A stretch of 64,000 nucleotides of DNA from Desulfobacterales bacterium (lineage in GTDB: Bacteria; Desulfobacterota; Desulfobacteria; Desulfobacterales; JASJAZ01), in assembly GCA_030066785.1 (NCBI GenBank), contig JASJAZ010000006.1, positions 3,504 through 67,503 of the forward strand. Direction: 5' to 3'. Positions 577 through 19,207 of the stretch are shown piece by piece. Each line of letters begins with the position of its first letter. The first letter of the stretch is position 1. The position numbers and the translations under genes were made by a program. The notes below the pieces were generated by a model, which saw nothing but the letters and a program-made list of their open reading frames with translations, was not told where the DNA came from and ran no database searches.

Positions 577-2529
577 TCAGGCATCCTCAGCATTTTCAGG
601 TTGGGCCGGTCGCTCAATCGCCGGCACCAAATGTGGCGGGGATACTTTACGAACCGCGTCGTATTCGGGGGGACAGGCCACGACACATTCGCCGCATTTA
701 ACGCATAGTTGCTGATCAATGCCTTTTTTACGGGTACTGGTGGTAAAAACCGCGTTGGTGGGACAGCAGCCCACACAGGCATCGCATCCCCGGGCGCACT
801 TGTCCAAATCGATATAATAGGCAATTAAGGGGCGGCACACCAGTCCCGGGCAGCGACCTTCTTTGAGGTGCGCATCGTAATCTTCTTTAAAATACCGAAT
901 CGAGGTGAGTATCGGATTCGGCGCCGTTTTCCCCAATCCACACAGCGAGCCCTTTTTTATATCCAGGCTTAAATCCTGTAATCGCTGCAAATCATCATCC
1001 TGTCCTTCGCCCTTGGTGATGCGTTCAAGAATATCCAACAAATGGCGGGTACCGATGCGGCAAAATGTACATTTGCCGCAAGATTCATTTTGGGTAAAAT
1101 CTAAAAAATAGCGCGACACATCCGCCACGCAAGTATCTTCATCCATGACCACCATACCACCGGAACCCATCATGGCGCCGGCTTGGGTTAGAGAATCAAA
1201 ATCAATCGGGGTATCCAAAAACGCTGCCGGCAGGCACCCCCCCGAGGGTCCCCCGATCTGTACGGCCTTAAATGCTTTCTGATTGGGTATGCCCCCGCAA
1301 ATATCAAAAATGAGCTCGCGCAGCGTCACCCCCATGGGAATTTCCACCAAGCCGGCATGGACCACATCGCCAACCACCGAAAATATGGCGGTTCCTGGAC
1401 TTTCTTCCGTGCCGATGCTCCGAAACCAGGAGTAACCTTTCTCAATGATTGGCGGCACGCAGGCCAGCGTTTTCACATTATTGATCACGGTGGGTTGGCC
1501 CTTGAGGCCGTTGACCACCGGATAGGGTGGCCGGTGTTGCGGCATCCCCCGATAGCCTTCGATGGAGCGAATCATTCCGGTTTCTTCACCACAAACAAAA
1601 GCGCCGGAACCCTGAAATAGTTTTATTCTAAAGTTAAAGTCGGTTTCAAAAATATGGCGGCCCAGAATCCCCATGGTTTCCGCCTGAGCGATGGCGCGTG
1701 TCATTATTTTAACAGCCAGAGGATATTCGGCCCGCACATAGATTATTCCCTGATGTGCGCCCACCGCCCGTGCACATATGGCCATGCCTTCCAAAACTTG
1801 GTGGGGATTGCTTTCTATAATGGTTCGATCCATGTATGCACCCGGATCGCCTTCATCGGCATTACAAATGACGACTTTTTCGAGGCTCTCCGCCTCACGA
1901 GCCAGCGCCCATTTGCGTCCCGTGGAAAATCCGGCACCACCCCGTCCCCGCAGGCCGGCATGCTGGATTGCAGCCACTATGTCTTCCGGAGCCATTTGCA
2001 GTGCTTGCGCCAATCCGCTATATCCCCCGCTGACTAAATAATCATCTATTTCCTCTGGATTGATGTGACCGCATTTTTCCATTACCACCCGCACTTCCTG
2101 GTTGAAACGGTCAAACTCGGTTACCGATGGAATCATTTCATTGGTTTCCATGGCACCGTAGATATGTTCGAAGCAGGGGTCACCTTCGATTAAAAACTGC
2201 CGCACCAGCATTTTGGCTTTGCCGGCCGTTACGTTATGGTAGAATATCGGTGCAAATCCTGAATCCGGGTGATCAATAATAACCACCGGTTCGGCGTAAC
2301 AATGCCCAATACATCCCACTGTATAAATTTGCGCTTCCACCCTCCGTTCCGCCAGTGCCTGTTCAAATGTCTGCTTGGTCTCAATGGCCCCGGCTGCGAT
2401 GCCGCAGGTGGCCATGCCGATGGTGATCTTGGGAACCGCGCCATCGGTATCTGCGGTTTTACGCTGGTCGGCTTGTTCCCGAATCCTTTGAAAAACCGCT
2501 TTTAATGCTTGGTGATTGGCTACCGTCAT
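577..2529 (-). CDS. NuoF/HydB-type NAD(P)H-binding flavoprotein subunit with an N-terminal thioredoxin-like 2Fe-2S domain and a C-terminal 2x[4Fe-4S] ferredoxin domain
   Basis: 650-aa ORF. Motifs GLRGRGGAGFSTGRKW (FMN/NADH site), ESCGKCTFCR (N3 cluster) and a C-terminal CxxCxxCxxxCP pair. It overlaps the upstream NuoE-like gene by 4 nt. Confidence 0.9.
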   Translation of the reverse strand: MTVANHQALKAVFQRIREQADQRKTADTDGAVPKITIGMATCGIAAGAIETKQTFEQALAERRVEAQIYTVGCIGHCYAEPVVIIDHPDSGFAPIFYHNVTAGKAKMLVRQFLIEGDPCFEHIYGAMETNEMIPSVTEFDRFNQEVRVVMEKCGHINPEEIDDYLVSGGYSGLAQALQMAPEDIVAAIQHAGLRGRGGAGFSTGRKWALAREAESLEKVVICNADEGDPGAYMDRTIIESNPHQVLEGMAICARAVGAHQGIIYVRAEYPLAVKIMTRAIAQAETMGILGRHIFETDFNFRIKLFQGSGAFVCGEETGMIRSIEGYRGMPQHRPPYPVVNGLKGQPTVINNVKTLACVPPIIEKGYSWFRSIGTEESPGTAIFSVVGDVVHAGLVEIPMGVTLRELIFDICGGIPNQKAFKAVQIGGPSGGCLPAAFLDTPIDFDSLTQAGAMMGSGGMVVMDEDTCVADVSRYFLDFTQNESCGKCTFCRIGTRHLLDILERITKGEGQDDDLQRLQDLSLDIKKGSLCGLGKTAPNPILTSIRYFKEDYDAHLKEGRCPGLVCRPLIAYYIDLDKCARGCDACVGCCPTNAVFTTSTRKKGIDQQLCVKCGECVVACPPEYDAVRKVSPPHLVPAIERPAQPENAEDA

Positions 2530-5598: not shown

Positions 5599-6639
5599 TT
5601 ATCGCACTGCTTGACGTACGCGCTCGATTAAAGCCTTACCGCTAGCCATATCGCCCCCGCCAACGGCTTTCATAACCCTGGGATCCGTATAAACCCGGCG
5701 CACCGCTTGGGTAAAACGATTTTTGTCGGGATGACTGATGACCATGCCTTCAGATTTGAGTTTGATCTCCAGATTCTGGTCCGCCTCGCGGGACAACCCG
5801 CGCTCATAATCGCGGGCCACAACCGCGGCGTTGACCAAAACCTTTTGCTGGGATGGTGGCAGTTTCTGCCATACCGTTTCACTGACTAGCAGCATGGCCG
5901 GTGAATAAAAGTGACCCGTAATGGCTAAATATTTCTGGACTTCAAACAGGCGCGACGAATAGATCACTGCCAATGGATTTTCCTGAGCATGCACGGCGCC
6001 TTGCTCCAGCGCCGTAAACAACTCCCCAAAGGCCATGGGCAAAGGCGCCGCTCCCAGGGACTGCATGGAAATGATAAAAAGATCATCCTCCATGACACGA
6101 ATTTTCAATCCCTGCATATCCTGGGGAGATCGAATCGGCCGGACCGAATTGGTAATATTGCGAAAACCGTTTTCAAACCAACCCAAAGAGCGAATCCCGA
6201 TTGCAAGAAATTTCTGGCTGATGTCATTTCCGATGGGGCCATCCAGCATTCGGTAGCAAGTCGCGCGGTCTTTAAAAAGAAACGGCAGGTTAAAAACTTT
6301 GACATCGGGTATGAAGTTTCCCAGGGGACCCGTGGATGTCAGACACATTTCCAGTGTGCCCAGTTGGAGACCTTCTACCATTTCACGCTCGGAGCCAAGT
6401 TGAGCGGCAGGAAATAACTGAATGTCGATAGCGCCGTTCGTTTTAGCTTCAACGATAGACTCGAAGTGTTTAATACCCTGATTGTAAATATGATCCGGCT
6501 GAGTGGCGGTGCCGACTTTTAAAACCGTCTGGGCCATACACCCCGTATCCGCCCAAAAAAAACTGCCCGCACACAACACTATGCCTGTCACCATCTTTAG
6601 CCATCGCTTCATTATGCGCCTCCTTATCAACTGGGTCAT
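5599..6639 (-). CDS. dctP: TRAP transporter periplasmic solute-binding subunit (DctP family)
   Basis: 346 aa with a signal peptide and DctP-family sequence (LKVGTATQPDHIYNQGIKHFE...). The true start may be the internal MKRWLKM. Confidence 0.85.
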   Translation of the reverse strand: MTQLIRRRIMKRWLKMVTGIVLCAGSFFWADTGCMAQTVLKVGTATQPDHIYNQGIKHFESIVEAKTNGAIDIQLFPAAQLGSEREMVEGLQLGTLEMCLTSTGPLGNFIPDVKVFNLPFLFKDRATCYRMLDGPIGNDISQKFLAIGIRSLGWFENGFRNITNSVRPIRSPQDMQGLKIRVMEDDLFIISMQSLGAAPLPMAFGELFTALEQGAVHAQENPLAVIYSSRLFEVQKYLAITGHFYSPAMLLVSETVWQKLPPSQQKVLVNAAVVARDYERGLSREADQNLEIKLKSEGMVISHPDKNRFTQAVRRVYTDPRVMKAVGGGDMASGKALIERVRQAVR

Positions 6640-6913
6640 TCTGAATGAGATGCTTGCTTTCGTTCTTATCTACTATCGCAATATTTCGCAACCATCTATC
6701 GCCAGAATATCTATATCGGTAAATCATTTGGTAATTTCAGTACTTCGGTGACGACATAGCTAGCGCCGTGCTGACAGATCTATTTTAGTGTTTGCATTTT
6801 AAGTGCGTTTGTATGAAATTAAATCGGTTTATGCTTACGATTCACACAGACCACACAATCGGGTTTGTCCATTAATGTTTTCATATTGTTGCAGCATTTG
6901 AAGGAATGGGGCA

Positions 6914-7891
6914 ATGAAAATCACTGTTGTCGGCGCCGGCGCCATGGGCAGCCTTTTTGGGGCAATGCTGTTTGAAGCCGGGTTAAATGTCTCCCTGTTC
7001 ACCACCAATGTCGCTCACACAGCCGCCATCCAAAATGACGGCCTCAAAATCGAAGTTAGTGGTAAAACTCGTACCGTCCCGGTTTCAGCCATCTCAGATC
7101 CAATCAACCTGGATCCCGTCGATCTGGTCATTGTATTGGTAAAATCGCCCCAAACCCAACCCGCAGCTAAGACGGCTAAAAAAATTCTAAAGCCCAATGG
7201 TGTTGCCTTAACGCTGCAAAATGGGCTTGGCAACGCCGATATTATTGCCGCCACGATTAGCCCCAATAAGGTTTTGGCGGGCTCCACCTCGCATGGCGCC
7301 ACCATGCTCGCCCCGGGCCGTATTCGTCATGCCGGCAAGGGCCCTTCCGTTATCGGTCCATGGGGCGCCTGCAAACTGCAATGTGCGCAGATGATTGCCG
7401 GGCATTTTGCGCAGGCAGGCATTGACATCACCGTATCGGATAAAATTGAAACGGTCTTATGGCAAAAACTTTTAATCAATATCGGTATCAATGCCATTAC
7501 CGCCTTAACCGGTATTAAAAATGGACAACTATTGGATCTGGCCGTCACACAGGAACTATCCCGACAAGCGGTGCTAGAAGGCATGCAAGTAGCACAAGCC
7601 CTCGGCATCGATGTCAGCAATGATGTTGTCGAAAACGTTGTCAAAATTGCCAAGGCCACTGCGAATAACCGCTCTTCCATGGGGCAAGATGTCGATCGGC
7701 ACCGTGAGACTGAAATTAATGCCATCAATGGCCTGATTGTACGCCAAGCACAAAAATTGGGATTGACCGTACCAATTAATCAAACTCTGACCACCTTGAT
7801 CCAAACACTGCAGACGCACTATCTTGAGCAGAAAGGAGCAGACGAATATGGGTCGCGCAAAAACGACGGTAAAGGATATCCGCCAGGCTAA
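6914..7891 (+). CDS. panE: 2-dehydropantoate 2-reductase (ketopantoate reductase)
   Basis: N-terminal Rossmann motif MKITVVGAGAMGSLFG, a C-terminal ApbA_C-like region and adjacency to panB. The 3' end overlaps panB by 44 nt in another frame. Confidence 0.8.
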   Translation: MKITVVGAGAMGSLFGAMLFEAGLNVSLFTTNVAHTAAIQNDGLKIEVSGKTRTVPVSAISDPINLDPVDLVIVLVKSPQTQPAAKTAKKILKPNGVALTLQNGLGNADIIAATISPNKVLAGSTSHGATMLAPGRIRHAGKGPSVIGPWGACKLQCAQMIAGHFAQAGIDITVSDKIETVLWQKLLINIGINAITALTGIKNGQLLDLAVTQELSRQAVLEGMQVAQALGIDVSNDVVENVVKIAKATANNRSSMGQDVDRHRETEINAINGLIVRQAQKLGLTVPINQTLTTLIQTLQTHYLEQKGADEYGSRKNDGKGYPPG

Positions 7892-8784: not shown

Positions 8785-9741
8785 TTAATCGACTTCGGGT
8801 CTTGGCAGCACACCGGCTTGCTCAGCAATCTGTGGCACTTTGTGCTCCCATTCAATGGCCATTAGATGCACTCCGGCCACGCCTTGCATTTCTTTGAATT
8901 CTTCGATCTGTTCACAGGCGATTTTGATGCCTTCTTCCGCCACCTTGCCTTTGCCGGCGCCCTGCAGACGCTTGATAAGGTCTTCCGGTACATCCATTCC
9001 TGGGACCTTGCTTTGCATATATTTGGCCATACCAACACTCTTCATGGGCGTTACCCCTGCGAGAATGTATGCTTTTTCGGACAATCCCATATCGTTGGCC
9101 TGTTTAACCCAGGTTCTAAAACGTTCCATATTATAGATACATTGCGTCTGGATGAAATCCACACCCGCCTCAATCTTTTTGGCCAGCCGATGCACACGCC
9201 ATTCATAGGGCTCCGCAAAAGGATTGGCGGCTGCACCAATAAAAATCTTGGGCGGATCTTCAATCTCGGCGCCACCTAAAAATTGGCCCTCATCGCGCAT
9301 CCTTTTCACCATACCGATCAATTGCATGGAGTCGATATCAAATACCCCCTTGGCTTGAGGATGGTCACCAAATTGCTGGTGATCTCCGGAAAGACACAGC
9401 ATGTTGCGAATACCAAGCGCATAAGCGCCCAATATATCGGCCTGCATGGCCAGTCGATTGCGATCCCGGCATACCATTTGAAAATTCGGCTCCAGGCCCT
9501 CCTGCACCAAAATGAACGATGCGGCCCAGCTGGCCATTCGAACCACGGCGGTCTGATTGTCGGTAATATTGACGGCATCCACCATGCCTTTGAGATGCGA
9601 TGCTTTTTCGGTTACCTCTTTGACCGTGGTTCCGCGCGGGGGACCCAGTTCGCCTGTAAAGGCAAAATGGCCTGCACGCAATACTTTTTCTAAATTGCTA
9701 CCCGACTTATAGCCGTTCTGTTCTGTACTCATATCCGTCAC
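8785..9741 (-). CDS. metF: Methylenetetrahydrofolate reductase catalytic subunit (acetogen/SRB MetF type)
   Basis: 318-aa MTHFR TIM-barrel sequence (FAFTGELGPPRG...NITDNQTAVVRMAS...). It lies directly downstream of a MetV-type gene. Confidence 0.9.
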   Translation of the reverse strand: MTDMSTEQNGYKSGSNLEKVLRAGHFAFTGELGPPRGTTVKEVTEKASHLKGMVDAVNITDNQTAVVRMASWAASFILVQEGLEPNFQMVCRDRNRLAMQADILGAYALGIRNMLCLSGDHQQFGDHPQAKGVFDIDSMQLIGMVKRMRDEGQFLGGAEIEDPPKIFIGAAANPFAEPYEWRVHRLAKKIEAGVDFIQTQCIYNMERFRTWVKQANDMGLSEKAYILAGVTPMKSVGMAKYMQSKVPGMDVPEDLIKRLQGAGKGKVAEEGIKIACEQIEEFKEMQGVAGVHLMAIEWEHKVPQIAEQAGVLPRPEVD

Positions 9742-9808: not shown

Positions 9809-10483
9809 TCATTCCTCTTCTTCCGGCTTTTTGTAGCCGGGTTGAATTAAGGTTCGCGGTACTTGATCACACCACGTACTGGGCGCCTTAATGCGTTTAA
9901 TGTTATCCAGGCGGTCCTGCGCCGACAGCCGTTCATGGATCAGGTACCAGGCACACGGTTGATCCTGGCTGATTTCGCATTTGCCCTGGTTGGTGCCACC
10001 ACAAGGTCCATTGTAAAGGCCTTTGGCACACATGGTTACCGGACAGATACCGCCGGTCCATCCCAACACGCAGCTCTGGCAGGATCGACAGCGTTCCTCA
10101 TACCAACCCACCGCCTGGTTGACGGCCAGTCCCGAGGTATCCACTGCCGGCAGAACCGGCGTTTCCGGGAATCGTTCCGCTAAAAACTGGATGCCGACAC
10201 CGCAGGCCATGGAAATGAGGGCATCGTAATCCTTTACCATATCATCCAGTTCGGCCAGATACTCGCGGTCACACTGGCGCTCCACGGTATAGGCCCCCAA
10301 TTCGATGGGATCATTATCAAGTTTGCGGGCCATGTCGATTTCGGCGTTTAAGACCGCCACTTCCTTCTCGCCGCCGGCCAGACAAACCGAGACGCAGGTA
10401 CCGCAGCCCACGTTTAGAACTTTCTTATAGCCTTTGAGCATATCTTTGATTTCTTCAAAAGGCTTGCGCTTAGCAACTATCAT
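9809..10483 (-). CDS. metV: Methylene-THF reductase small Cys-rich subunit (MTHFR_C / MetV type)
   Basis: 224 aa, Cys-rich (CGTCVSVC...CRSCQSCVLGWTGGICPVTMCAKGLYNGPCGG), matching the MetV zinc/Fe-S subunit pattern. It is adjacent to metF. Confidence 0.85.
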   Translation of the reverse strand: MIVAKRKPFEEIKDMLKGYKKVLNVGCGTCVSVCLAGGEKEVAVLNAEIDMARKLDNDPIELGAYTVERQCDREYLAELDDMVKDYDALISMACGVGIQFLAERFPETPVLPAVDTSGLAVNQAVGWYEERCRSCQSCVLGWTGGICPVTMCAKGLYNGPCGGTNQGKCEISQDQPCAWYLIHERLSAQDRLDNIKRIKAPSTWCDQVPRTLIQPGYKKPEEEE

Positions 10484-10542
10484 TTTTCCTCCTGTTACAC
10501 CGCTCAGCTACCAAATAGATTGTTGATTAACCATCAACTATG

Positions 10543-11865
10543 CTAGAAATTTGAACTTTCCGGATGAAAGACATCCACATCTTTGAGATCATCGCCCAGA
10601 TATTCGCGTTCATTCGGACCGAGGATGCCCATGGATAAACAAATTAAGGTCCAAAGGTGGACCGTGTTCCAGGCGTGATCACGCTGGTCGCTCAGGTCGT
10701 GGATCTGCGCGTGGCAATTATGGCATGGCGTAATGCAGTAACCGGCGCCTGTATTAAGGACCTGTTCGGCCTTAAGTTTACCGTATTCCCGACGTGCTTC
10801 CGGATAGCCTGATTGCAAGAAACCACCGCCGCCGCCGCAGCAGTAATTGTTTGATTTGTTCGGAGCCATATCGATGAAGTTCTCTTTACCGACCACCGCT
10901 TCAACCACGTAGCGCAGGTCATCCGCCACCGGATCGCCAAACGATTTACGCACCAGTTGGCAGGGGTCTTGAACGGTGAATTTAACCTTGCGGTCCTTAT
11001 TCCAGTCAGAGCTGACCTTGAGCTTGCCTTCTCGAATCCACTGGGCATAGTACTGAATGATGCTTTTGATTTCAAATTTGTAATCGAGGTTGAATTTTTG
11101 CTGTCCGAACCGGACAGCGAACAGTTCGTGCCCTCATTCAGTATTGAGCCAGACCTTGCAGCCCAGATCCTCCACCGCCTTTTGTTTAACCTCGACAATA
11201 TGCTTCCAGCTTTCCTCATCGGCCATGAACATGCAGTAGTTCTCGGCCGCCCAACCCTTGGTACCGTAAGTCCAGTCGGCGCCTACCGCGTGTAAAATTT
11301 TCCACAAAGGCACCATTTCATCCGGCTCGGTCACCGGTTCACGTGAATTCTGATTCAAGAAAAACTCAGCCCCTTTTTTGTTAACCGGCGCCTGCATATC
11401 TTTAAATTCCGGCTGGGCCTCCTGGTATTCCTCCAACACATCTTCGACCACAAACTGAAAATCTTCCTCGGTGGCGCCCATGGCACTGCAGGTATCGCTG
11501 CGCAGGGCCATATCACAAGAGCCCACAATGCCCTTGGGCCGTTCTTCCCGCGGCCAGCTTTGGCGGGCATAGAAAACCAGCTGGGGGATGTTGATCTTCA
11601 TGGGACACACATACACGCAGCGGGTACACATGCTGCACATCCACACCCAGGGGGTACTGGTGATCTCCTCATCCATCCCCAGGGCGGCCATGCGCAGAAA
11701 TTTGCGCGGGTCCATGCCCTCCAAACCAGTGGCCGGGCATCCCGAGGAACACGCGCCGCATGTCAGACAAAGATTCAGATTCCCGCCTTCGGGAAGCAAA
11801 TCCTTCACCTTGTCGATAAACATGCTTTTCTTTTTGCCTCCTAATTTAATTGCTTCATCTGCCAT
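10543..11865 (-). CDS. Fused HdrC/HdrB-like (HdrD/GlpC-type) Fe-S oxidoreductase; predicted selenoprotein with an in-frame TGA at 11134-11136
   Basis: Track ORFs 11134-11910 and 10543-10953 are in the same frame and joined by one TGA: ...KVWLNTE-U-GHELFAVRFGQQKF...VQDPCQLVRKSFGDPV. The N-terminus has 2x CxxCxxCxxxCP. The C-terminus has a CCG domain (NYCCGGGGG...PCHNCH). The U sits at the second Cys position of the first CCG-type motif (C-x31-E-U-G). The start is at MADEAIK (ATG 11865), preceded by TAAGGAG. Confidence 0.8.
11101..11117 (-). promoter_or_regulatory. Candidate SECIS hairpin for the HdrCB-like UGA
   Basis: mRNA CUGUCCG-GUU-CGGACAG, a perfect 7-bp stem that starts 16 nt after the UGA. 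Confidence 0.55.
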
Positions 11866-11878
11866 AATTGACTCCTTA

Positions 11879-12325
11879 TTAGGCTGCCGCCTTCTTTTTA
11901 TTGGTTGCATCTTTATTTTGATTCAACGGATTAGGACCGAGTTCTTTGATGTGCTCGGTCATTTCCTTGGCGTATTGGGCAAAGGTCGGGCCCTCGCCGG
12001 AAGACAGGTTGTACATGCGAACCCGGTCGCCTTCAATGCCGATCTCGTCCAACAACTCCCGAACGTGATTGACTCTTTCCCGGCATCGCAAATTGCCCTC
12101 ATTATAATGACACGCGCCTTCCAAACAACCAACGCAATAGGCACCATCGGCGCCCTTTTGAATGGCTCGTAAAAGATGAATCACATCGACCTTGCCGGTG
12201 CAAGGCACCCGAATTATTTTCACATTGGCCGGATAATCCAGTCGCATGGAACCTGCCAGGTCCGCAGCGGAGTAACCTCAATATTCACAACAAAATGCGA
12301 TGATGGTTGGTTCAAAATCTGACAT
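11879..12325 (-). CDS. mvhD: MvhD-type (methyl-viologen-reducing hydrogenase delta) 2Fe-2S protein; predicted selenoprotein with TGA at 12278-12280
   Basis: Hand translation upstream of track ORF 11879-12247 stays in frame: MSDFEPTIIAFCCEY-U-GYSAADLAGSMRLDYPANVKIIRVPCTGKVD... The paralogue at 15364-16113 reads [17 protein letters not shown] at this point, so U aligns with a Cys. The ATG at 12325 overlaps the hdrA stop by 1 nt (TAATG). Confidence 0.8.
12249..12263 (-). promoter_or_regulatory. Candidate SECIS hairpin for the mvhD (11879-12325) UGA
   Basis: mRNA GGACC-UGGCA-GGUUC, a 5-bp stem including one G.U pair, starting 14 nt after the UGA. This is the weakest of the five hairpins. Confidence 0.35.
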
Positions 12326-15300
12326 TACATACCTCCAGCAAGAAGGGCATCAATTTTACAAATCAGCTGTTCGTCTTCATAGAAGCTCAGCCCGATTACC
12401 TGCCGCGGACAAACCGCCGTACATACGCCGCATCCGTGACAAAGCGCCTCGTTAATTTCAATTTCTTTTTTTTCGGTATTAAACTCCGGTACGCCAAACG
12501 GGCAGGAGCGGACACACGTCAGGCATTTCACACAATGCTCCACATCCACTTTGGCAGTAATGGCCGAAAGTTTGATGGCATCCTGGGCCAAAAAGGTTGT
12601 GGCCCGTGATGCGGCGGCCTGGGCCTGGGCAATGGTCTCCGAGATGAGCTTGGGCCCATGGGCCGTTCCGCAAAGAAAAACCCCTTCGCTGGGCATATCC
12701 ACCGGACGCAATTTGACATGCGCTTCAATGAAAAAGCCTTCCGGGTTGCGGTTTAATTTCATGATATTGCTCATCTCTTGGGTATCAGTGGCGGTCATAC
12801 CGGCACTAAGCGCCAATAAATCGGCCCTGATTTCGACATCCTGCTGCAAAATATGATCCTTGACAGTCACCAGCATGCCGTCGGAAGCCGCTTTGACAGC
12901 CGGTGGCGTATCTTTGTCAAACCGAATGAAGATAACCCCTTGCTTACGGGCTTCCATGTAGTAGTCTTCCAGCAATCCATAGGTACGGATATCCCGGTAC
13001 AGCACAAACACTTGGGCATCCGGGTTCTGTTTCCTGATCAGCAGCGCATTTTTTACGGCATTCTGGCAGCAGATGCGCGAGCAGTTTTCATTTTCTTCGT
13101 TGCGGGAGCCAACGCATTGAATCATAACAACGCTGGTCAGTTCCGCAGCACCCTTATTTTCCAACATGTCACCCAATTCCACCTGGGTGACCACCCGTTC
13201 ATCTTCGCCATATAAAAACTCTTGAGGCTGATATTCGGTGGCACCCGTGGCCACCAAAAAAACACCATGCTCAATGCGATGGGCTGCTTTATCGGCGCCC
13301 ACTTCGATCTCCGTGGCAAAGCTGCCTTTAAACCCTTCGAAACCGGCAATGCGTGCATCGGTAAATACTTGAATGTTTTCATCGTCAGTTACATCAGATA
13401 CTAGCTTCGCTACGTAAGCCGGAATATCATCACCCTCAATAGTATGGTGCAGTTTGCGGGCAAACCCGCCCAACTCGGCATTTTTTTCAACCACAATGGC
13501 GTTAAAACCTTGCCGGCTGAGCCCCAAGGCCGCATTCATCCCGGCAACGCCCCCGCCGATGACCAGCGCCTGTTTGTTGATGGGCACAACCTTTTCGTTA
13601 AGCGTATGCAGGGTGGATGCCCGGGCAACCGCCATGCGCACCAAATCCTTGGCTTTTTGGGTTGCAATCTCTGGATTATTGGAATGAATCCATGAATTCT
13701 GATTGCGGATATTGGCCATTTCAAACAGATATTTGTTGAGGCCGCAGGCCTCCAGCGTCTCCATGAACATCGCTTCATGAGTTTTGGGGCTGCAAGACGC
13801 CACCACTACCCGGTTCAATTCAAGTTCCTTGATCTTTTCTTTAATCAGATCCTGTGTGTCCTGGCTGCAGGTAAACAGGTTCTCATCGGCATAGGCCACA
13901 TTCGGCAGATTTTCGGCGTATTTACGAACTTCGGGAACATCCACAATCCCGCCGATATTGATGCCACAATTGCAAACAAACACACCGATACGCGGATCTT
14001 CCTGGCTGACATCCCTTTGTTCAGGAAGTTCAATTTTGGCGATGTCGGTTCCCCGCGCCGCAGCCAACTCGGCCCCCGCAGCACACGCCGCTGCGCTGGC
14101 TTCGGTAACCGAACTGGGGATATCCTTGGGGCCCTGCAGCACACCGCAGGTGTAGATACCGGCACGTGAGGTCGTCACCGGTGCAAAAGAATTTGTCTGC
14201 ACAAAGTTGTAATGATTTAATTCAATGCCCAAGCGTTCGGCCAGCTCGGCCCCATCCGGCTGAATCTGAAGCCCGACGGACAAAACCACCATATTGAATA
14301 CTTCTTCCTGCATCGCACCGGTTTCATCTGCGAATTTGACAACCAAATCGCCGGTATCGGGAACTTCCGTGATGGTATGAATGCGGGCTTTCACAAAACG
14401 CACGCCGTCTTTATCTTTGGCCCGGTTATAGTACTTTTCATAATCCTTGCCAAAGGTACGCATGTCCATATTAAAAATGGCGCAGTCCAAATCTCCATGG
14501 GCATGCTCTTTGGCAATCATGGCTTCCTTGACCGCATACATACAGCACACTGAAGAGCAATAGCCATTGCCGGTGCGGTTGGCATCACGGGATCCCACGC
14601 ACTGCAGCCAAGCAATTTTCTGCGGTTCTTCGCGATCCAACGGCCGCATGAGATGTCCCAGATAAGGACCGGAAGCGCTTAGAATTCGCTCAAATTCTTC
14701 ACTGGTCACCACATTGGGATATTTACCGTAGCCCAAATAGTCGAGGCTGGAGGGGTCATAACCCCGACTGCCGGCTGACAGTATCACAGAGCCGACATTG
14801 AGCGAGCTTTCGCGCACCTTATCATCGTATTCGACCGCCTTGGCGATACACATATTTTCACAAAGTCCGCAGCCGATACAGGTTTCCGTATCGATGGCAA
14901 ACGCAAGGGGTACCGCTTGGGCATATTCGATAAAGGTGGCCCGGCGGTCATCCAGCTTTAAATTGTATTGATTTACAGCGGTTACAGGGCAATGCAGCGC
15001 ACATTCACCGCATCCCGTGCATTTGACGGGATCAATGTATCGCGGACGGTTGCTCAAGGTAACATCAAAATTTCCGGGACTACCTTCCACACTTTTGATG
15101 TCGCTGCAAGTAATCAGTTCTATGTTAGGGTGCCGGCCGACCTCGACCAGTTTAGGTGAGATCACTCACATGGCACAATCATTGGTCGGGAACGTTTTGT
15201 CCAGTCGGGACATCATCCCGCCAATGGTCGGCGACTTATCAACTAAATATACTTTGTAATCCGAATTGGCCAAGTCCAGCGAAGCTTGCATGCCGGCGAT

Positions 15301-15354
15301 ACCGGCACCTACGACCATCACTGAACCGCTTTTCTTGGTACTTTCAGCTCCCAT
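12325..15354 (-). CDS. hdrA: Long (about 1009 aa) tandem-type HdrA-like flavoprotein/Fe-S subunit; predicted selenoprotein with TGA at 15166-15168
   Basis: Track ORFs 15166-15354 and 12325-15165 are in frame across one TGA: ...[30 protein letters not shown]. There are two GxGxxG FAD motifs ([22 protein letters not shown]), several ferredoxin CxxCxxCxxxCP motifs and CVGSRD...[19 protein letters not shown] precedes ATG 15354. Confidence 0.85.
15133..15150 (-). promoter_or_regulatory. Candidate SECIS hairpin for the hdrA (12325-15354) UGA
   Basis: mRNA CUGGUC-GAGGUC-GGCCGG, a 6-bp stem with two G.U pairs and GGU in the loop, starting 15 nt after the UGA. The element is identical in the paralogue. 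Confidence 0.45.
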
Positions 15355-15363
15355 GTGATCTCC

Positions 15364-16113
15364 TTATAAAGCTGCAAAAACCGGTTTACAGGCTTCCATT
15401 CCTTTGAATTCAACCATATTGGTCTTTTCCATATCAGCCAGCAGATAAGAAATCTGCCTTAAATTCAATCCAACTTTTTGGCTGATGTCGCGCGGGGCGG
15501 CACAGCCCTCTTGAATGGCTTGATAAATTAGATTCTTTTGATATTCACGCTCTAATACTTGATCCAAAACCGTTTCAAAACTGTGTTGGTCCCATTGGCG
15601 GCCATACACATCGCCTTTGGTGGTAATTTCGACTTCCTTGCCCACCATCCAACGAATCGTTTCGCCCGAAACTGTCATTTCAGCGGCTTCCAATTGGAGG
15701 GCATTGGCTTGGCAGTCAAATTTACCCTGGTTTTGGATGGAATTGACGGTTGCATTGACAACCTCCACAAACCGTTGGGCTTCTGCTGATGATACCCACG
15801 CCAAGTGGAGCCGCTCTGCACCGATACCGGCAATATCCAGTAATTTTTGGGTTAGCCGGATTTTTTTATCAGCTTGGACATTACCTTCCAGGTAATGGCA
15901 GTCACCGAAATGTCACCCTGCTACCAGGGCGCCATCACAACCTTCTTTAAAGGCTTTGATAATAAATAGGGGATCGATGCGTCCGGAACACATGACGCGT
16001 ACGGTGCGCATGTTGGGTGGATACTGCAACCGGGAGACACCGGCCAGATCGGCACCGGCATAAGCGCACCAGTTGCACAAAAACGCCGCAATTTTTGGTT
16101 CAAACTCTGCCAT
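15364..16113 (-). CDS. mvhD: MvhD-type protein with a C-terminal extension of about 130 aa; predicted selenoprotein with TGA at 15913-15915
   Basis: Track ORFs 15913-16113 and 15364-15804 join in frame: ...[60 protein letters not shown]... The U replaces the Cys in the position corresponding to CVGCLEGACHY of the paralogue (the G-C-H-x-G-x-C-H-Y type motif). Confidence 0.85.
15879..15897 (-). promoter_or_regulatory. Candidate SECIS hairpin for the mvhD (15364-16113) UGA
   Basis: mRNA CAUUACC-UGGAA-GGUAAUG, a perfect 7-bp stem starting 15 nt after the UGA. Confidence 0.55.
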
Positions 16114-16180
16114 AATACTACCTTATCAATTTGATTTAATGGTAAATGACGTTAATCAGTCAAAACGTTCATCGATTACT

Positions 16181-19100
16181 TTAGGCAATGGCACACACAG
16201 ATGCCACAATCTGCTCATCTTTAAAATGCAGCATGTCGATGGCTTTTTTCGGGCAAGATGAGGCACACAACCCGCAACCCTTGCAGGAAGCAGGAATGTT
16301 CTTGGCCCGATAACCCTTGCCCTCGACTTCTTCAACTTCAATGGCACCAAATGGGCAGACGCTGGCACATAGTCCACAACCGATACAGGTTTCCGCATCG
16401 ACCTGGGAGACCAGCGGTGAAATTTGAATATTGGCTTTGGCCAGTACCGTGGCGGCTCGGCTGGAAGCCGCCAGCGCCTGGGCAATGCTTTCATCCAGTG
16501 ACTTGGGAAAATGCGCTAAGCCACAGACAAAAATACCATCGGATGCAAAGTCGACCGGTCGCAACTTCGCATGGGCTTCCATGAAGAAGTTTTCTTCGTT
16601 GACCGGCAGCTTGTACAGTTCGGCCAGTTGGCTGTTATCCGACGGCACGATGGCCGTTGCCAAATTCAAAAGATCCGCGCTGATGATGACCTCTTTTTGC
16701 AAAATCGGATCAAACACCTGAATTTCCAAACCATCACCAGCCTCTTTAACTACCGGCTTGCGGTCCAGCGTGTAGCGAATGAAAATCACACCTAGCTGTC
16801 GTGCTTGTTTGTACAGCACTTCCCGTTCCGCATAGGTGCGGATATCGCGATACAGCACAAAAACATCTTTATCAGGTGACTGTTTCTTAATTTGAATGGC
16901 TTGCAGCACTGATCCCGTACAGCAGATCCGTGAGCAATACGGTCGCTGGTCATCACGTGAGCCGACACACTGAATAAACACAACGCTCTGCGCATCCTTC
17001 AACTTAGCAGGATCATTTTCCAGGTCATGCCACTTAGTGACACAAGGGCTTTGGCCAAACAGATATTCATCCGGTTCATAGGCTTGTCCGCCGGTGGCAA
17101 TAATAGTTGCGCCATGTTTGACCGTGACCTCACCCTTGCCATTTTTTACCTGAGTTTCGAAATTGCCGACAAAGCCCGAAGCACCTACCACTTCACTGTC
17201 TAACAATACCTTAACATCGGTGTGTTTTTCGACTTGATCGACCAAGTCCGTTAAAAAGGGTGGCACGTCACGGCCGCTCCATGTCTGATGCACATCTTTC
17301 GCGGAACCGCCCAATTCAGATGATTTTTCCACGATCGTGGTGGGAAAACCCTGATCGGCCAAACTCAGCGCGGCCGTCATACCAGCCACGCCGCCACCAA
17401 CTACCAGAGCAGATTTATCGACATCCACCGACAAATCCGGAATCGGTTCCAGCAGCGATGCGCGGGAAACGGCCATACGCACCAGGTCTTTGGCTTTCTC
17501 CGTAGCATCGGCCTTGCTCTTGGAATGCACCCAGGTGCATTGGTTGCGGATATTGGCCATCTCAAATAGATAGGCATTGACCCCCGCGTTGCGGATGGTT
17601 TCCTGAAACAACGGTTCATGGGTACGTGGGGTGCAGGCTGCGACAACAACTCGATTAAGATTCTGTTCCTTAATCACTTCAACCATCTTTTCCTGGGTGT
17701 CCTGGCTGCATGAAAACAGGTTCTCTTCCACATAGGCGACATTCGGCAGGGTTCGCGCATATTCAGCAATGGCCGGAACGTCTGCAATACCGCCGATATT
17801 CACACCGCAATTACACACAAAGACGCCTACCCGGGCGTCCTGGTCGATTACTTCAAGCTCTTTGGGAAACACCTTATCTTTGACCATGGTGCCGCGGTGA
17901 TCCGACAAGGAAATACCGGCCCGACACGCCGCAGCACTGGCTTCCATGACCGCCTGGGGAATGTCTTTGCAGCCCTGCATCACACCCGCCACATAAATAC
18001 CCGGCCGGGAAGTATTAACCGGTGCAGTGTCATCGGTTTTGACGAAGTTATAATCGTTTAACTCGATATCAAGTGTTTGGGCCAAATCAATGGCTTGATC
18101 GGACGGCTCCATACCAACCGACAATACCACCATATCAAACTGCTCGATATTGCGTTGGCCTTCATCAGAGGCGTACTCTAAAGCCAAAGTTCCACTGTCA
18201 TCAGCTTGTGTAATGGAATGTACTTTGGAGCGAATAAATCGAACGCCTTCATCCTTGGCGCGATTGTAATATTTCTCAAACTCTTTGCCATGGGTTCGCA
18301 TGTCCATGAAAAATACCGTGGCTTCGAACTGTTCGCCAATATGCTCTTTGGCGATCAGGGCTTCCTTGATGGCATACATGCAGCAGACCGAGGAACAGTA
18401 TTCATTGTCACAGCGGTTCAAGTCCCGCGAACCCACACATTGCAACCACGCGATCTTGGTTGGTTCCTGTTCATCCGATGGTCGCAGCACATGACCACCA
18501 GTGGGGCCGCTGGCGGACAAGATGCGTTCAAACTCCATGCTGGTCATAACATTGGGCAGTTTGGCGTGCTGATAATTATCTAAAGATGATGGATCGAACG
18601 GTTTGTATCCCGCCGTGGCAATGACCGCACCCACGTTTAGATTCAGCGTTTCTTGCTTTTGATCAAAATCAATTGCATCGGTAGGACAATATTTTAAACA
18701 GGCCCCACATTTGCCTTTTTTCAAATAAATACATCTTTCGGGATCGATCACGTATTTCAGGGGCACCGCCTGGGCATAGGGAATATATGCCGCCTTGCGT
18801 TTGGAAATGGCTTCATTGAATTCATCGGCGGTTTTAGCAGGACATTTCTCCTCACAGGCCCCACAGGCAATACATTTTTCCATATCCACATAGCGGGCCG
18901 ATTTTTTGATGGATACCGTAAAGTTCCCTTCTTCGCCCTGAATATCGGTAACTTCAGAAAGGGTATGCAACTCGATGTTTAGGTGCCGGCCGACCTCGAC
19001 CAGTTTGGGTGAGATAATTCACATGGAACAGTCGTTGGTGGGAAAGGTCTTGTCAAGCTGGGCCATGGCACCACCGATGGCCGGCGATTTTTCCACCAGA

Positions 19101-19207
19101 TGGACATAATAGCCTGAATCGGCAAGATCGAGAGCAGCCTGCATGCCGGCGATGCCAGCACCGACCACCATAACCGATCCGCTTTGGGATGATTTTTTTG
19201 AACTCAT
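16181..19207 (-). CDS. hdrA: Second long (about 1008 aa) tandem-type HdrA-like subunit; predicted selenoprotein with TGA at 19019-19021
   Basis: Track ORFs 19019-19207 and 16181-18970 are in frame across one TGA when the intervening codons are read: ...[38 protein letters not shown]... The domain order matches the paralogue at 12325-15354. RBS CAGGAG precedes ATG 19207. Confidence 0.85.
18986..19003 (-). promoter_or_regulatory. Candidate SECIS hairpin for the hdrA (16181-19207) UGA
   Basis: Same CUGGUC-GAGGUC-GGCCGG element as in the paralogue, starting 15 nt after the UGA. Confidence 0.45.

Follow-up and report, generated by a model that had tools for sequence, protein, structure and literature searches.

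A selenocysteine at the T/GECGH position of an HdrD-like iron-sulfur protein encoded next to metV and metF in a Desulfobacterales bacterium

An "Fe-S oxidoreductase (GlpC)" was among the 25 bacterial selenoprotein families described by Zhang et al. (2006, PMC1794560), and a selenoprotein of the same name was found again in Olavius symbionts. The genome paper of Desulfobacterium autotrophicum HRM2 lists a selenocysteine (Sec)-containing hdrD4 (PMC2702500), and in a 2026 review an "Fe-S oxidoreductase-like" selenoprotein is included, for which the Sec motif is given as "UGH" (PMC13188914). Here, we describe a gene of this type found in a stretch of 64,000 nucleotides (referred to as the window; all coordinates are positions in it unless a locus is named) from a Desulfobacterales bacterium (assembly GCA_030066785.1, contig JASJAZ010000006.1). 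The gene encodes an HdrD-like protein of 440 residues with an in-frame UGA at codon 244, in the motif N-T-E-U-G-H. It belongs to the catalogued family, to which it is assigned by the U-G-H motif, by the Cys found at the aligned position in 120 of 120 homologues and by its clustering with Sec-containing hdrA (TGA 15168) and mvhD (TGA 12280) genes; the kind of selenoprotein is itself not new. The features held in common with the GlpC-like family and hdrD4 include the Sec in U-G-H, the Cys homologues, a deltaproteobacterial host and a cluster with Sec-containing hdrA and frhD/mvhD, whereas the operon in the window ends in metV-metF, not in hydrogenase genes. A Cys-containing relative (P0006, 67% identity, locus L084) is part of an hdrA-mvhD-hdrD-frhB-[NiFe] hydrogenase operon and ties the window family to the operon type described in 2006.

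Related proteins are known in other settings. DsrK, HmcF and TmcB have a single CCG motif, and the Cys in their T/GECGH sequence was described as a remnant of the missing CCG motif that is probably essential for catalysis, or that alternatively might bind the cluster (2024 DsrMKJOP paper, PMC10861901). In the structure of EtfD, the N-terminal domain holds a linear [3Fe-4S] cluster with four Cys residues, while a His of the same loop is a ligand of the noncubane cluster (PMC13083937). The MetFV-HdrABC-MvhD assembly of Moorella is an established complex (PMC5861303). The comparisons presented below suggest that the window gene most probably encodes a soluble HdrD-type Fe-S subunit in which Sec244 is found at the position of HdrB Cys78, i.e., at the T/GECGH position, and which would harbor one noncubane cluster, Sec standing in for the second.

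The reading frame extends from ATG 11865 to TAG 10543 and is interrupted only once, by the in-frame TGA 11136..11134 (codon 244). When the merged protein, with U replaced by C, was used as the query, 2331 protein matches were obtained. The best 120 of these, which were aligned, are full-length proteins of ~435 residues with 64-71% identity, and the codon-244 column holds Cys in all 120, within an invariant E-C-G-H. A full-length Sec form is absent among the matches of this search, and many fragments in the representative library end at profile position 242 or begin at position 247. A scan with one genome per species yielded the 80 closest loci with 81 gene copies. These loci, at 73-91% identity, are all from Desulfobacterales or related Thermodesulfobacteriota, including Desulfosarcina variabilis (L009) and Desulfospira joergensenii (L036), and each of the 81 copies has TGA at exactly codon 244. 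In the Sec loci the part after the TGA (69-90% identity) is about equally conserved as that before it (73-92%). Furthermore, four additional in-frame TGAs are found at known Sec sites of HdrA and MvhD in the same minus-strand cluster. Some genomes harbor two Sec-form paralogues, which are found in tandem in L050 (4058..5380 and 6001..7311 of that locus); L006 and L007 are from the same metagenome-assembled genome.

Bacterial Sec insertion sequence (SECIS) elements, as specified in the bSECISearch criteria, are stem-loops that begin soon after the UGA, with an apical loop ~16-37 nucleotides downstream and a G as the first base of the loop. In the window gene, an upper hairpin, GCUGUCCG-GUU-CGGACAGC (11118..11100), begins 15 nucleotides past the UGA and is composed of eight base pairs and the loop GUU at nucleotides 24-26, the first base of which is G. 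A weaker lower helix is formed between 11127..11123 and 11096..11092. The 73-nucleotide stretch has a minimum free energy of -20 kcal/mol (z = -2.4), and an equally good fold was obtained in 3 of 200 shuffled sequences. An earlier note on this DNA, made from the sequence alone, had recognized a hairpin of seven base pairs starting after 16 nucleotides; the SECIS-like structure is present, and a closing G-C pair makes it eight base pairs starting after 15.

The conservation of the hairpin was analyzed in an ungapped alignment of a 63-nucleotide stretch around the UGA from 73 distinct sequences. The 8-bp helix is retained, and compensatory changes are seen in it. At pair 29-33, 55 sequences have G-C and 18 have U-A, pair 24-38 is A-U in 57, G-U in 13, G-C in 2 and U-A in 1, and neither pair is unpaired in any sequence. 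The covariation score is 0.142 as compared to 0.082 for shuffles, none of 500 of which reach 0.142, where it should be noted that the 73 sequences are phylogenetically related; slid registers of the hairpin score at most 0.039. The window gene itself displays an A-U to U-A swap in the hairpin at the cost of a Leu-to-Gln change, and the first base of the loop, G, is invariant in the 73 sequences. The structure is thus kept by compensatory substitutions among these related sequences. An Rfam search at E <= 1 over 10400..16600 gave no matches. Recoding at codon 244 is probably directed by this SelB-type SECIS hairpin, which is located inside the coding sequence. In the Cys form P0006 (L084 6715..6800), the Sec-clade peptide GHELYAFRVGLKK is retained after the TGC, and the hairpin has decayed to four of eight pairs, with no firm evidence for the direction of the Sec/Cys conversion. 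The peptide and the decayed hairpin could be a relic of a Sec-to-Cys conversion.

Because Cys is found in 120 of 120 homologues and TGA in 81 of 81 gene copies, and because the hairpin shows compensatory changes, the UGA at codon 244 is assigned as a Sec codon and the gene as a real selenoprotein gene. The TGA pattern, the Cys homologues and the conserved hairpin together are, at the sequence level, classical hallmarks of bacterial selenoprotein genes. The earlier note had joined two open reading frames into one such gene, and the single in-frame TGA, the Cys and TGA counts at this column in orthologues, and the conserved hairpin all bear this out.

The protein combines elements that in other systems are found in separate subunits. 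In Pfam, residues 30-92 match a ferredoxin dicluster domain and residues 297-388 a CCG domain, the only one identified. The former contains C33/36/39/43 and C77/80/83/87, two CxxCxxCxxxCP motifs that would bind cubane [4Fe-4S] clusters. In the latter, the motif C302-x39-C342C343-x37-C381xxC384 aligns in HMMER with C153/C193/C194/C231/C234 of HdrB, and this domain is where the single noncubane [4Fe-4S] cluster is predicted to reside. Searches of Protein Data Bank (PDB) sequences gave matches to HdrC for the N-terminus (E ~1e-14 to 1e-16) and to HdrB for the C-terminus (E ~4e-6). An AlphaFold2 (AF2) model was made from a Cys homologue, P0001, which is 71% identical (mean predicted local distance difference test score 83.6, predicted template modeling (TM) score 0.85). 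The best Foldseek match of this model is mycobacterial EtfD (9ojn, E = 1.7e-9), and the HdrB chains 8rvu_B and 5odc_B were matched over approximately their full length (302 and 311 columns, with target-normalized TM-scores of 0.69 and 0.61, respectively). The protein is a fusion of HdrC and HdrB, i.e., HdrD-like, as the earlier note had proposed; all motifs named there (two CxxCxxCxxxCP, ENYC-x31-E-U-G, NYCCGGGGG and PCHNCH) are present, and the second CCG domain, called canonical, falls on the HdrB cysteines.

The best NCBIfam models are those of HmcF (163 bits, cut-off 750), TmcB (157, cut-off 735) and DsrK (NF045796; 108.7, cut-off 400), all with scores far below cut-off, and the HdrB model TIGR03288 gives 14.7 with a cut-off of 345. 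A DsrK would be expected to reach at least 400 bits and to have dsrM as a neighbor; here, the neighbors are MvhD and MetV. Two complete CX31-39CCX35-36CXXC motifs, as in methanogen HdrD and HdrB, were not found in the protein, which has one Pfam CCG domain. In the vestigial N-terminal CCG-like domain only two of the five HdrB ligand positions are left, C211 (encoded by 11235..11233), which corresponds to HdrB C41, and U244, which corresponds to HdrB C78. Compared to the HdrB and HdrC of Moorella thermoacetica MetFV-HdrABC-MvhD and of methanogen HdrABC (5ODC, 8RVU), the HdrC-like and HdrB-like folds are the same, but the window protein fuses both into one chain and has Sec at the ligand position equivalent to Cys78. 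Methanogen HdrB has two noncubane sites, whereas one is predicted here.

In a profile alignment, the family sequence lnTECGH is placed on TECNGC of HdrB (C78/C81), i.e., on the CxxC end of the N-terminal motif (posterior ~0.4). When domain 1 was compared with domain 2 by hhalign, ENYCM was matched to NNYCC and TEC to TPC381, albeit weakly (E = 0.21). The AF2 model has residue 244 between strand 238-241 and helix 245-257, at the start of the latter, and C381 is likewise found between strand 376-379 and helix 382-395. The assignment of U244 to the HdrB Cys78 position, i.e., to the first of the two Cys residues in the CxxC that ends the N-terminal motif, is well supported by these alignments and by the model, albeit not proven. 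With this register, C211-M212 would correspond to the CC pair and the Cys1 position would be lost (QNSRE), while the last Cys position is occupied by Glu in the Sec forms and by Ser in the Cys forms. The Glu preceding Sec would be an ancestral residue that is common with HdrB and not a replaced Cys. Similarly, QDPC (C302) lies 57 residues past U244, where the motif needs 35-36, and reads as Cys1 of the second, C-terminal motif.

The same residue can be followed into the wider superfamily. In an alignment of the window protein with 38 distant full-length representatives, [T/G/S/P]-E-C-G-H is found at the Sec column in 31 of the 38, including G-E-C-G-H in P0199, which passes the NCBIfam DsrK cut-off. 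By this alignment, Sec244 is placed at the position of the T/GECGH Cys of DsrK, HmcF and TmcB. These proteins and the window protein have in common two cubane motifs, one complete CCG motif and the T/G-E-C-G-H remnant of a lost motif; the differences are the Sec in place of Cys, the extra Cys C211 and the lack of an adjacent membrane cytochrome partner in the window. Residue C211 is invariant and specific to the family, and the distant relatives carry Gly or Ala at this site. When the window and all loci were scanned in six frames, no other xECGH gene, e.g., dsrK, was found. Among structures, EtfD (PDB 9OJN) most closely resembles the complete soluble HdrD-like module, but differs in being membrane-anchored, heme-containing and non-catalytic, with four Cys residues in the N-terminal CCG domain for the linear [3Fe-4S] cluster and without Sec. 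The word selenocysteine does not occur in PMC10861901, and the link between the T/GECGH Cys and the Sec family may not yet have been drawn in the literature.

These observations suggest how the protein might operate. The N-terminal CCG domain would be degenerate and unable to hold a second noncubane cluster, and electrons would be transferred via the cubane clusters to a single noncubane cluster. A selenolate on the opposite face of the cleft would take the role of the missing second cluster, where it could form a transient selenosulfide by attack on a disulfide or trisulfide substrate, or ligate the special iron of the cluster in a reversible manner. The family-specific C211 is a possible resolving partner. 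A stronger form of this proposal is that the Sec replacement in a large Desulfobacterales clade is a natural experiment, indicating that the T/GECGH residue is a redox-active nucleophile that replaces the missing second noncubane cluster; we consider this idea tentative and somewhat doubtful. A Sec at or near the disulfide-reducing site had also been suggested in the earlier note, and in this respect its reading of the sequence appears correct.

The first alternative to be considered is that the TGA is a true stop, such that the region would contain two genes, one for an HdrC-like protein of 243 residues and the other for a shorter CCG protein, or would be a pseudogene or affected by a sequencing error. 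That gene callers split the gene, that library fragments end and restart around the TGA and that the protein matches include no full-length Sec form would all fit this explanation. However, the first possible start past the TGA in the open-reading-frame listing is the GTG at 10953, 61 codons downstream, and the 60 codons in between encode the invariant family residues G245, H246, Y273, W276, W288, N289, F296, T297, D300, P301 and C302, which disfavors a separately initiated downstream gene, as the earlier note had argued. Moreover, the same TGA is found in 81 gene copies from 80 independent assemblies, homologues have Cys at this column and the SECIS element is conserved. Reinitiation after a true stop, a pseudogene and a sequencing error were rejected on these grounds, and we regard the possibility as barely credible.

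A different view, put forward in the earlier note, takes the CCG motif of the N-terminal domain to be functional, with E-U in place of C-C and Sec as a ligand of a second noncubane [4Fe-4S] cluster, like those of HdrB and HdrD. In its favor, C211-x31-E243-U244 has a spacing compatible with the first half of CX31-39CC, and HdrB-type enzymes do use two clusters. Yet there is no CxxC 35-36 residues past U244, the next Cys, C302, being part of motif 2; Pfam identifies no CCG domain in the N-terminal stretch; the HdrB, hhalign and secondary-structure registers all place U244 at the CxxC position; only the two ligand positions survive; and Glu is conserved in HdrB's own T-E-C-N-G-C. This model is very unlikely to be correct. 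The E-U-G was misregistered as C-C-G because the x31 spacing is coincidental, and neither the interpretation of Glu as a replaced first Cys nor that of QDPC as part of the first motif holds. The alignment proposed there as a check does set the TGA outside the CC pair, but still within the domain, at the CxxC end of the vestigial motif. Finally, Sec244 could reside at the T/GECGH position and be mainly an iron ligand, which either binds the noncubane cluster reversibly in an "open" state or helps to bind a smaller, unusual cluster as in EtfD. Cluster binding by the conserved Cys was raised for DsrK and TmcB (PMC10861901), and in EtfD (9ojn) the linear [3Fe-4S] cluster is found in the equivalent domain with a His from the same loop on the noncubane cluster; H246 is invariant here. 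On the other hand, two Cys/Sec residues are left in the domain as compared to four in EtfD, and we consider this possibility rather improbable.

The preferred reading, i.e., a soluble HdrD-type subunit with Sec at the Cys78 position, is itself subject to several reservations. The genes selA, selB and selD were not found in the window, nor was any tRNA, and hence no tRNA-Sec. The U-A state of the hairpin may stem from few evolutionary events. Confidence in the alignment between the N-terminal domain and HdrB is modest (see the posterior and the hhalign E-value above), and a profile of domain 1 only, from 20 diverse sequences, searched against the PDB did not match HdrB and gave only chance TECGH strings; because of this, the HdrB register rests on the longer alignment, hhalign and the model topology. 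Sec can also be a metal ligand and its presence is no proof of a nucleophilic role. Furthermore, MetF was not found in 49 of the 80 Sec loci within 6 kb on each side or to the nearer contig end, and therefore the MetFV partnership is not general to the family; in L036, for example, where MetF is not nearby, the Sec gene is found between hrpA and parAB.

In the window, the gene order on the minus strand is HdrA(Sec)-MvhD(Sec)-HdrD(Sec)-MetV-MetF (Table 1), and five Sec codons are found within ~8 kb, in HdrA-1, MvhD-like-1, HdrA-2, MvhD-2 and the HdrD-like gene. The ATG of MvhD-2 overlaps the stop codon of HdrA-2 (ATGTAATG). The order HdrA-MvhD-HdrD(Sec)-MetV-MetF recurs in 14 other loci of the 80, and MetVF is found nearby in other orders in 17 more. 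The co-operonic metF, metV, hdrA, mvhD and hdrB/C-like genes are those of the MetFV-HdrABC-MvhD type. By analogy, the window protein most likely supplies the HdrBC function of a methylene-tetrahydrofolate (H4F) reductase/methyl-H4F dehydrogenase complex, which in a complete-oxidizing sulfate reducer would probably run toward methyl-H4F oxidation.

Table 1. Features of the HdrD-like selenoprotein gene and its surroundings in the window.
Feature	Coordinates	Strand	Details or basis
Complete coding sequence, 440-residue HdrD-like (HdrC+HdrB fusion) selenoprotein	10543..11865	minus	Frame, domains, full-length Cys homologues, Sec orthologues
Start codon, HdrD-like gene	11865..11863	minus	ATG
Stop codon, HdrD-like gene	10545..10543	minus	TAG
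Shine-Dalgarno-like AAGGAG	11872..11877	minus	6 nucleotides 5' of ATG; direct sequence reading
UGA codon 244, assigned to Sec	11134..11136	minus	Motif N-T-E-U-G-H; Cys homologues + TGA orthologues
Bacterial SECIS-type element	11092..11127	minus	Fold + covariation
HdrC-like ferredoxin domain, residues 30-92	11590..11778	minus	Pfam Fer4_8, Fer4_17; PDB HdrC chains
Vestigial N-terminal CCG-like domain, ~residues 165-260	11086..11373	minus	No Pfam CCG match; register comparisons; superfamily table
Complete C-terminal CCG domain, residues 297-388	10702..10977	minus	Pfam PF02754, 1.1e-11; HdrB alignment
MvhD-2 (FlpD domain), upstream neighbor	11879..12325	minus	TGA 12280..12278 (FCCEY-U-GYS)
HdrA-2, HdrA-like flavoprotein	12325..15354	minus	TGA 15168..15166 (TNDCAM-U-VISPK)
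MvhD-like-1	15364..16113	minus	TGA 15915..15913, Sec in VAG-U-HFGDCHY
HdrA-1, HdrA-like	16181..19207	minus	In-frame TGA 19021..19019 at classical HdrA Sec site
MetV, downstream neighbor	9809..10483	minus	PF12225
MetF, downstream neighbor	8785..9741	minus	PF02219 MTHFR

Additional observations concern the surrounding genes. HdrA-1 is arranged in tandem with HdrA-2, and a tandem HdrA is found also in L002, L017, L069, L071 and L073. MvhD-like-1 has a C-terminal extension of ~120 residues that lacks a counterpart in MvhD-2. Farther away, ~6 kb downstream of metF and beyond genes for a TRAP transporter, a NuoF-like protein (Complex1_51K + NADH_4Fe-4S) is encoded on the minus strand (577..2529), which could be a module linked to nicotinamide adenine dinucleotide, NAD(H).

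The Cys forms are found in other gene settings. In one of these, the adjoining genes encode a DAO-family flavin adenine dinucleotide (FAD)-dependent oxidoreductase, EtfB, EtfA and a 162-residue open reading frame; in another, the 162-residue reading frame is accompanied by the sulfur-relay genes for YeeE and TusA. Because the settings differ, the HdrD-like module is reused with different electron donors. The conserved reading frame of ~162 residues, without a Pfam match, adjoins Cys forms in L081 (6475..6963), L082 (6425..6910) and L083 (7410..7898), upstream of the Cys-form gene in two loci and downstream in one; its product may be an uncharacterized partner subunit. In L083 (8200..12450), the genes that come after the Cys form P0009 encode a sulfur transporter of the YeeE type, two copies of TusA and a Se/S-carrier protein, which hints at a link to sulfur or selenium trafficking.

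The window gene, like 80 or more orthologous loci, seems to be represented in public protein sets by split or truncated entries, given that the matches include no full-length Sec form and that fragments terminate at the UGA or resume shortly past it. As a consequence of this splitting or truncation, the HdrBC-like subunit of the Wood-Ljungdahl MetF module is missing from metabolic reconstructions of Desulfobacterales. The location of Sec at T/GECGH links a long-catalogued, functionally uncharacterized selenoprotein family to the proposed catalytic thiol of DsrK, HmcF and TmcB, and makes Sec244 a clear target for mutagenesis and spectroscopy. If the residue is indeed a nucleophile, the finding would help to explain how one cluster can suffice in DsrK-type enzymes, and it would mean that the MetFV-HdrA-MvhD-HdrD complex of sulfate reducers does real thiol/selenol-disulfide chemistry on an acceptor.

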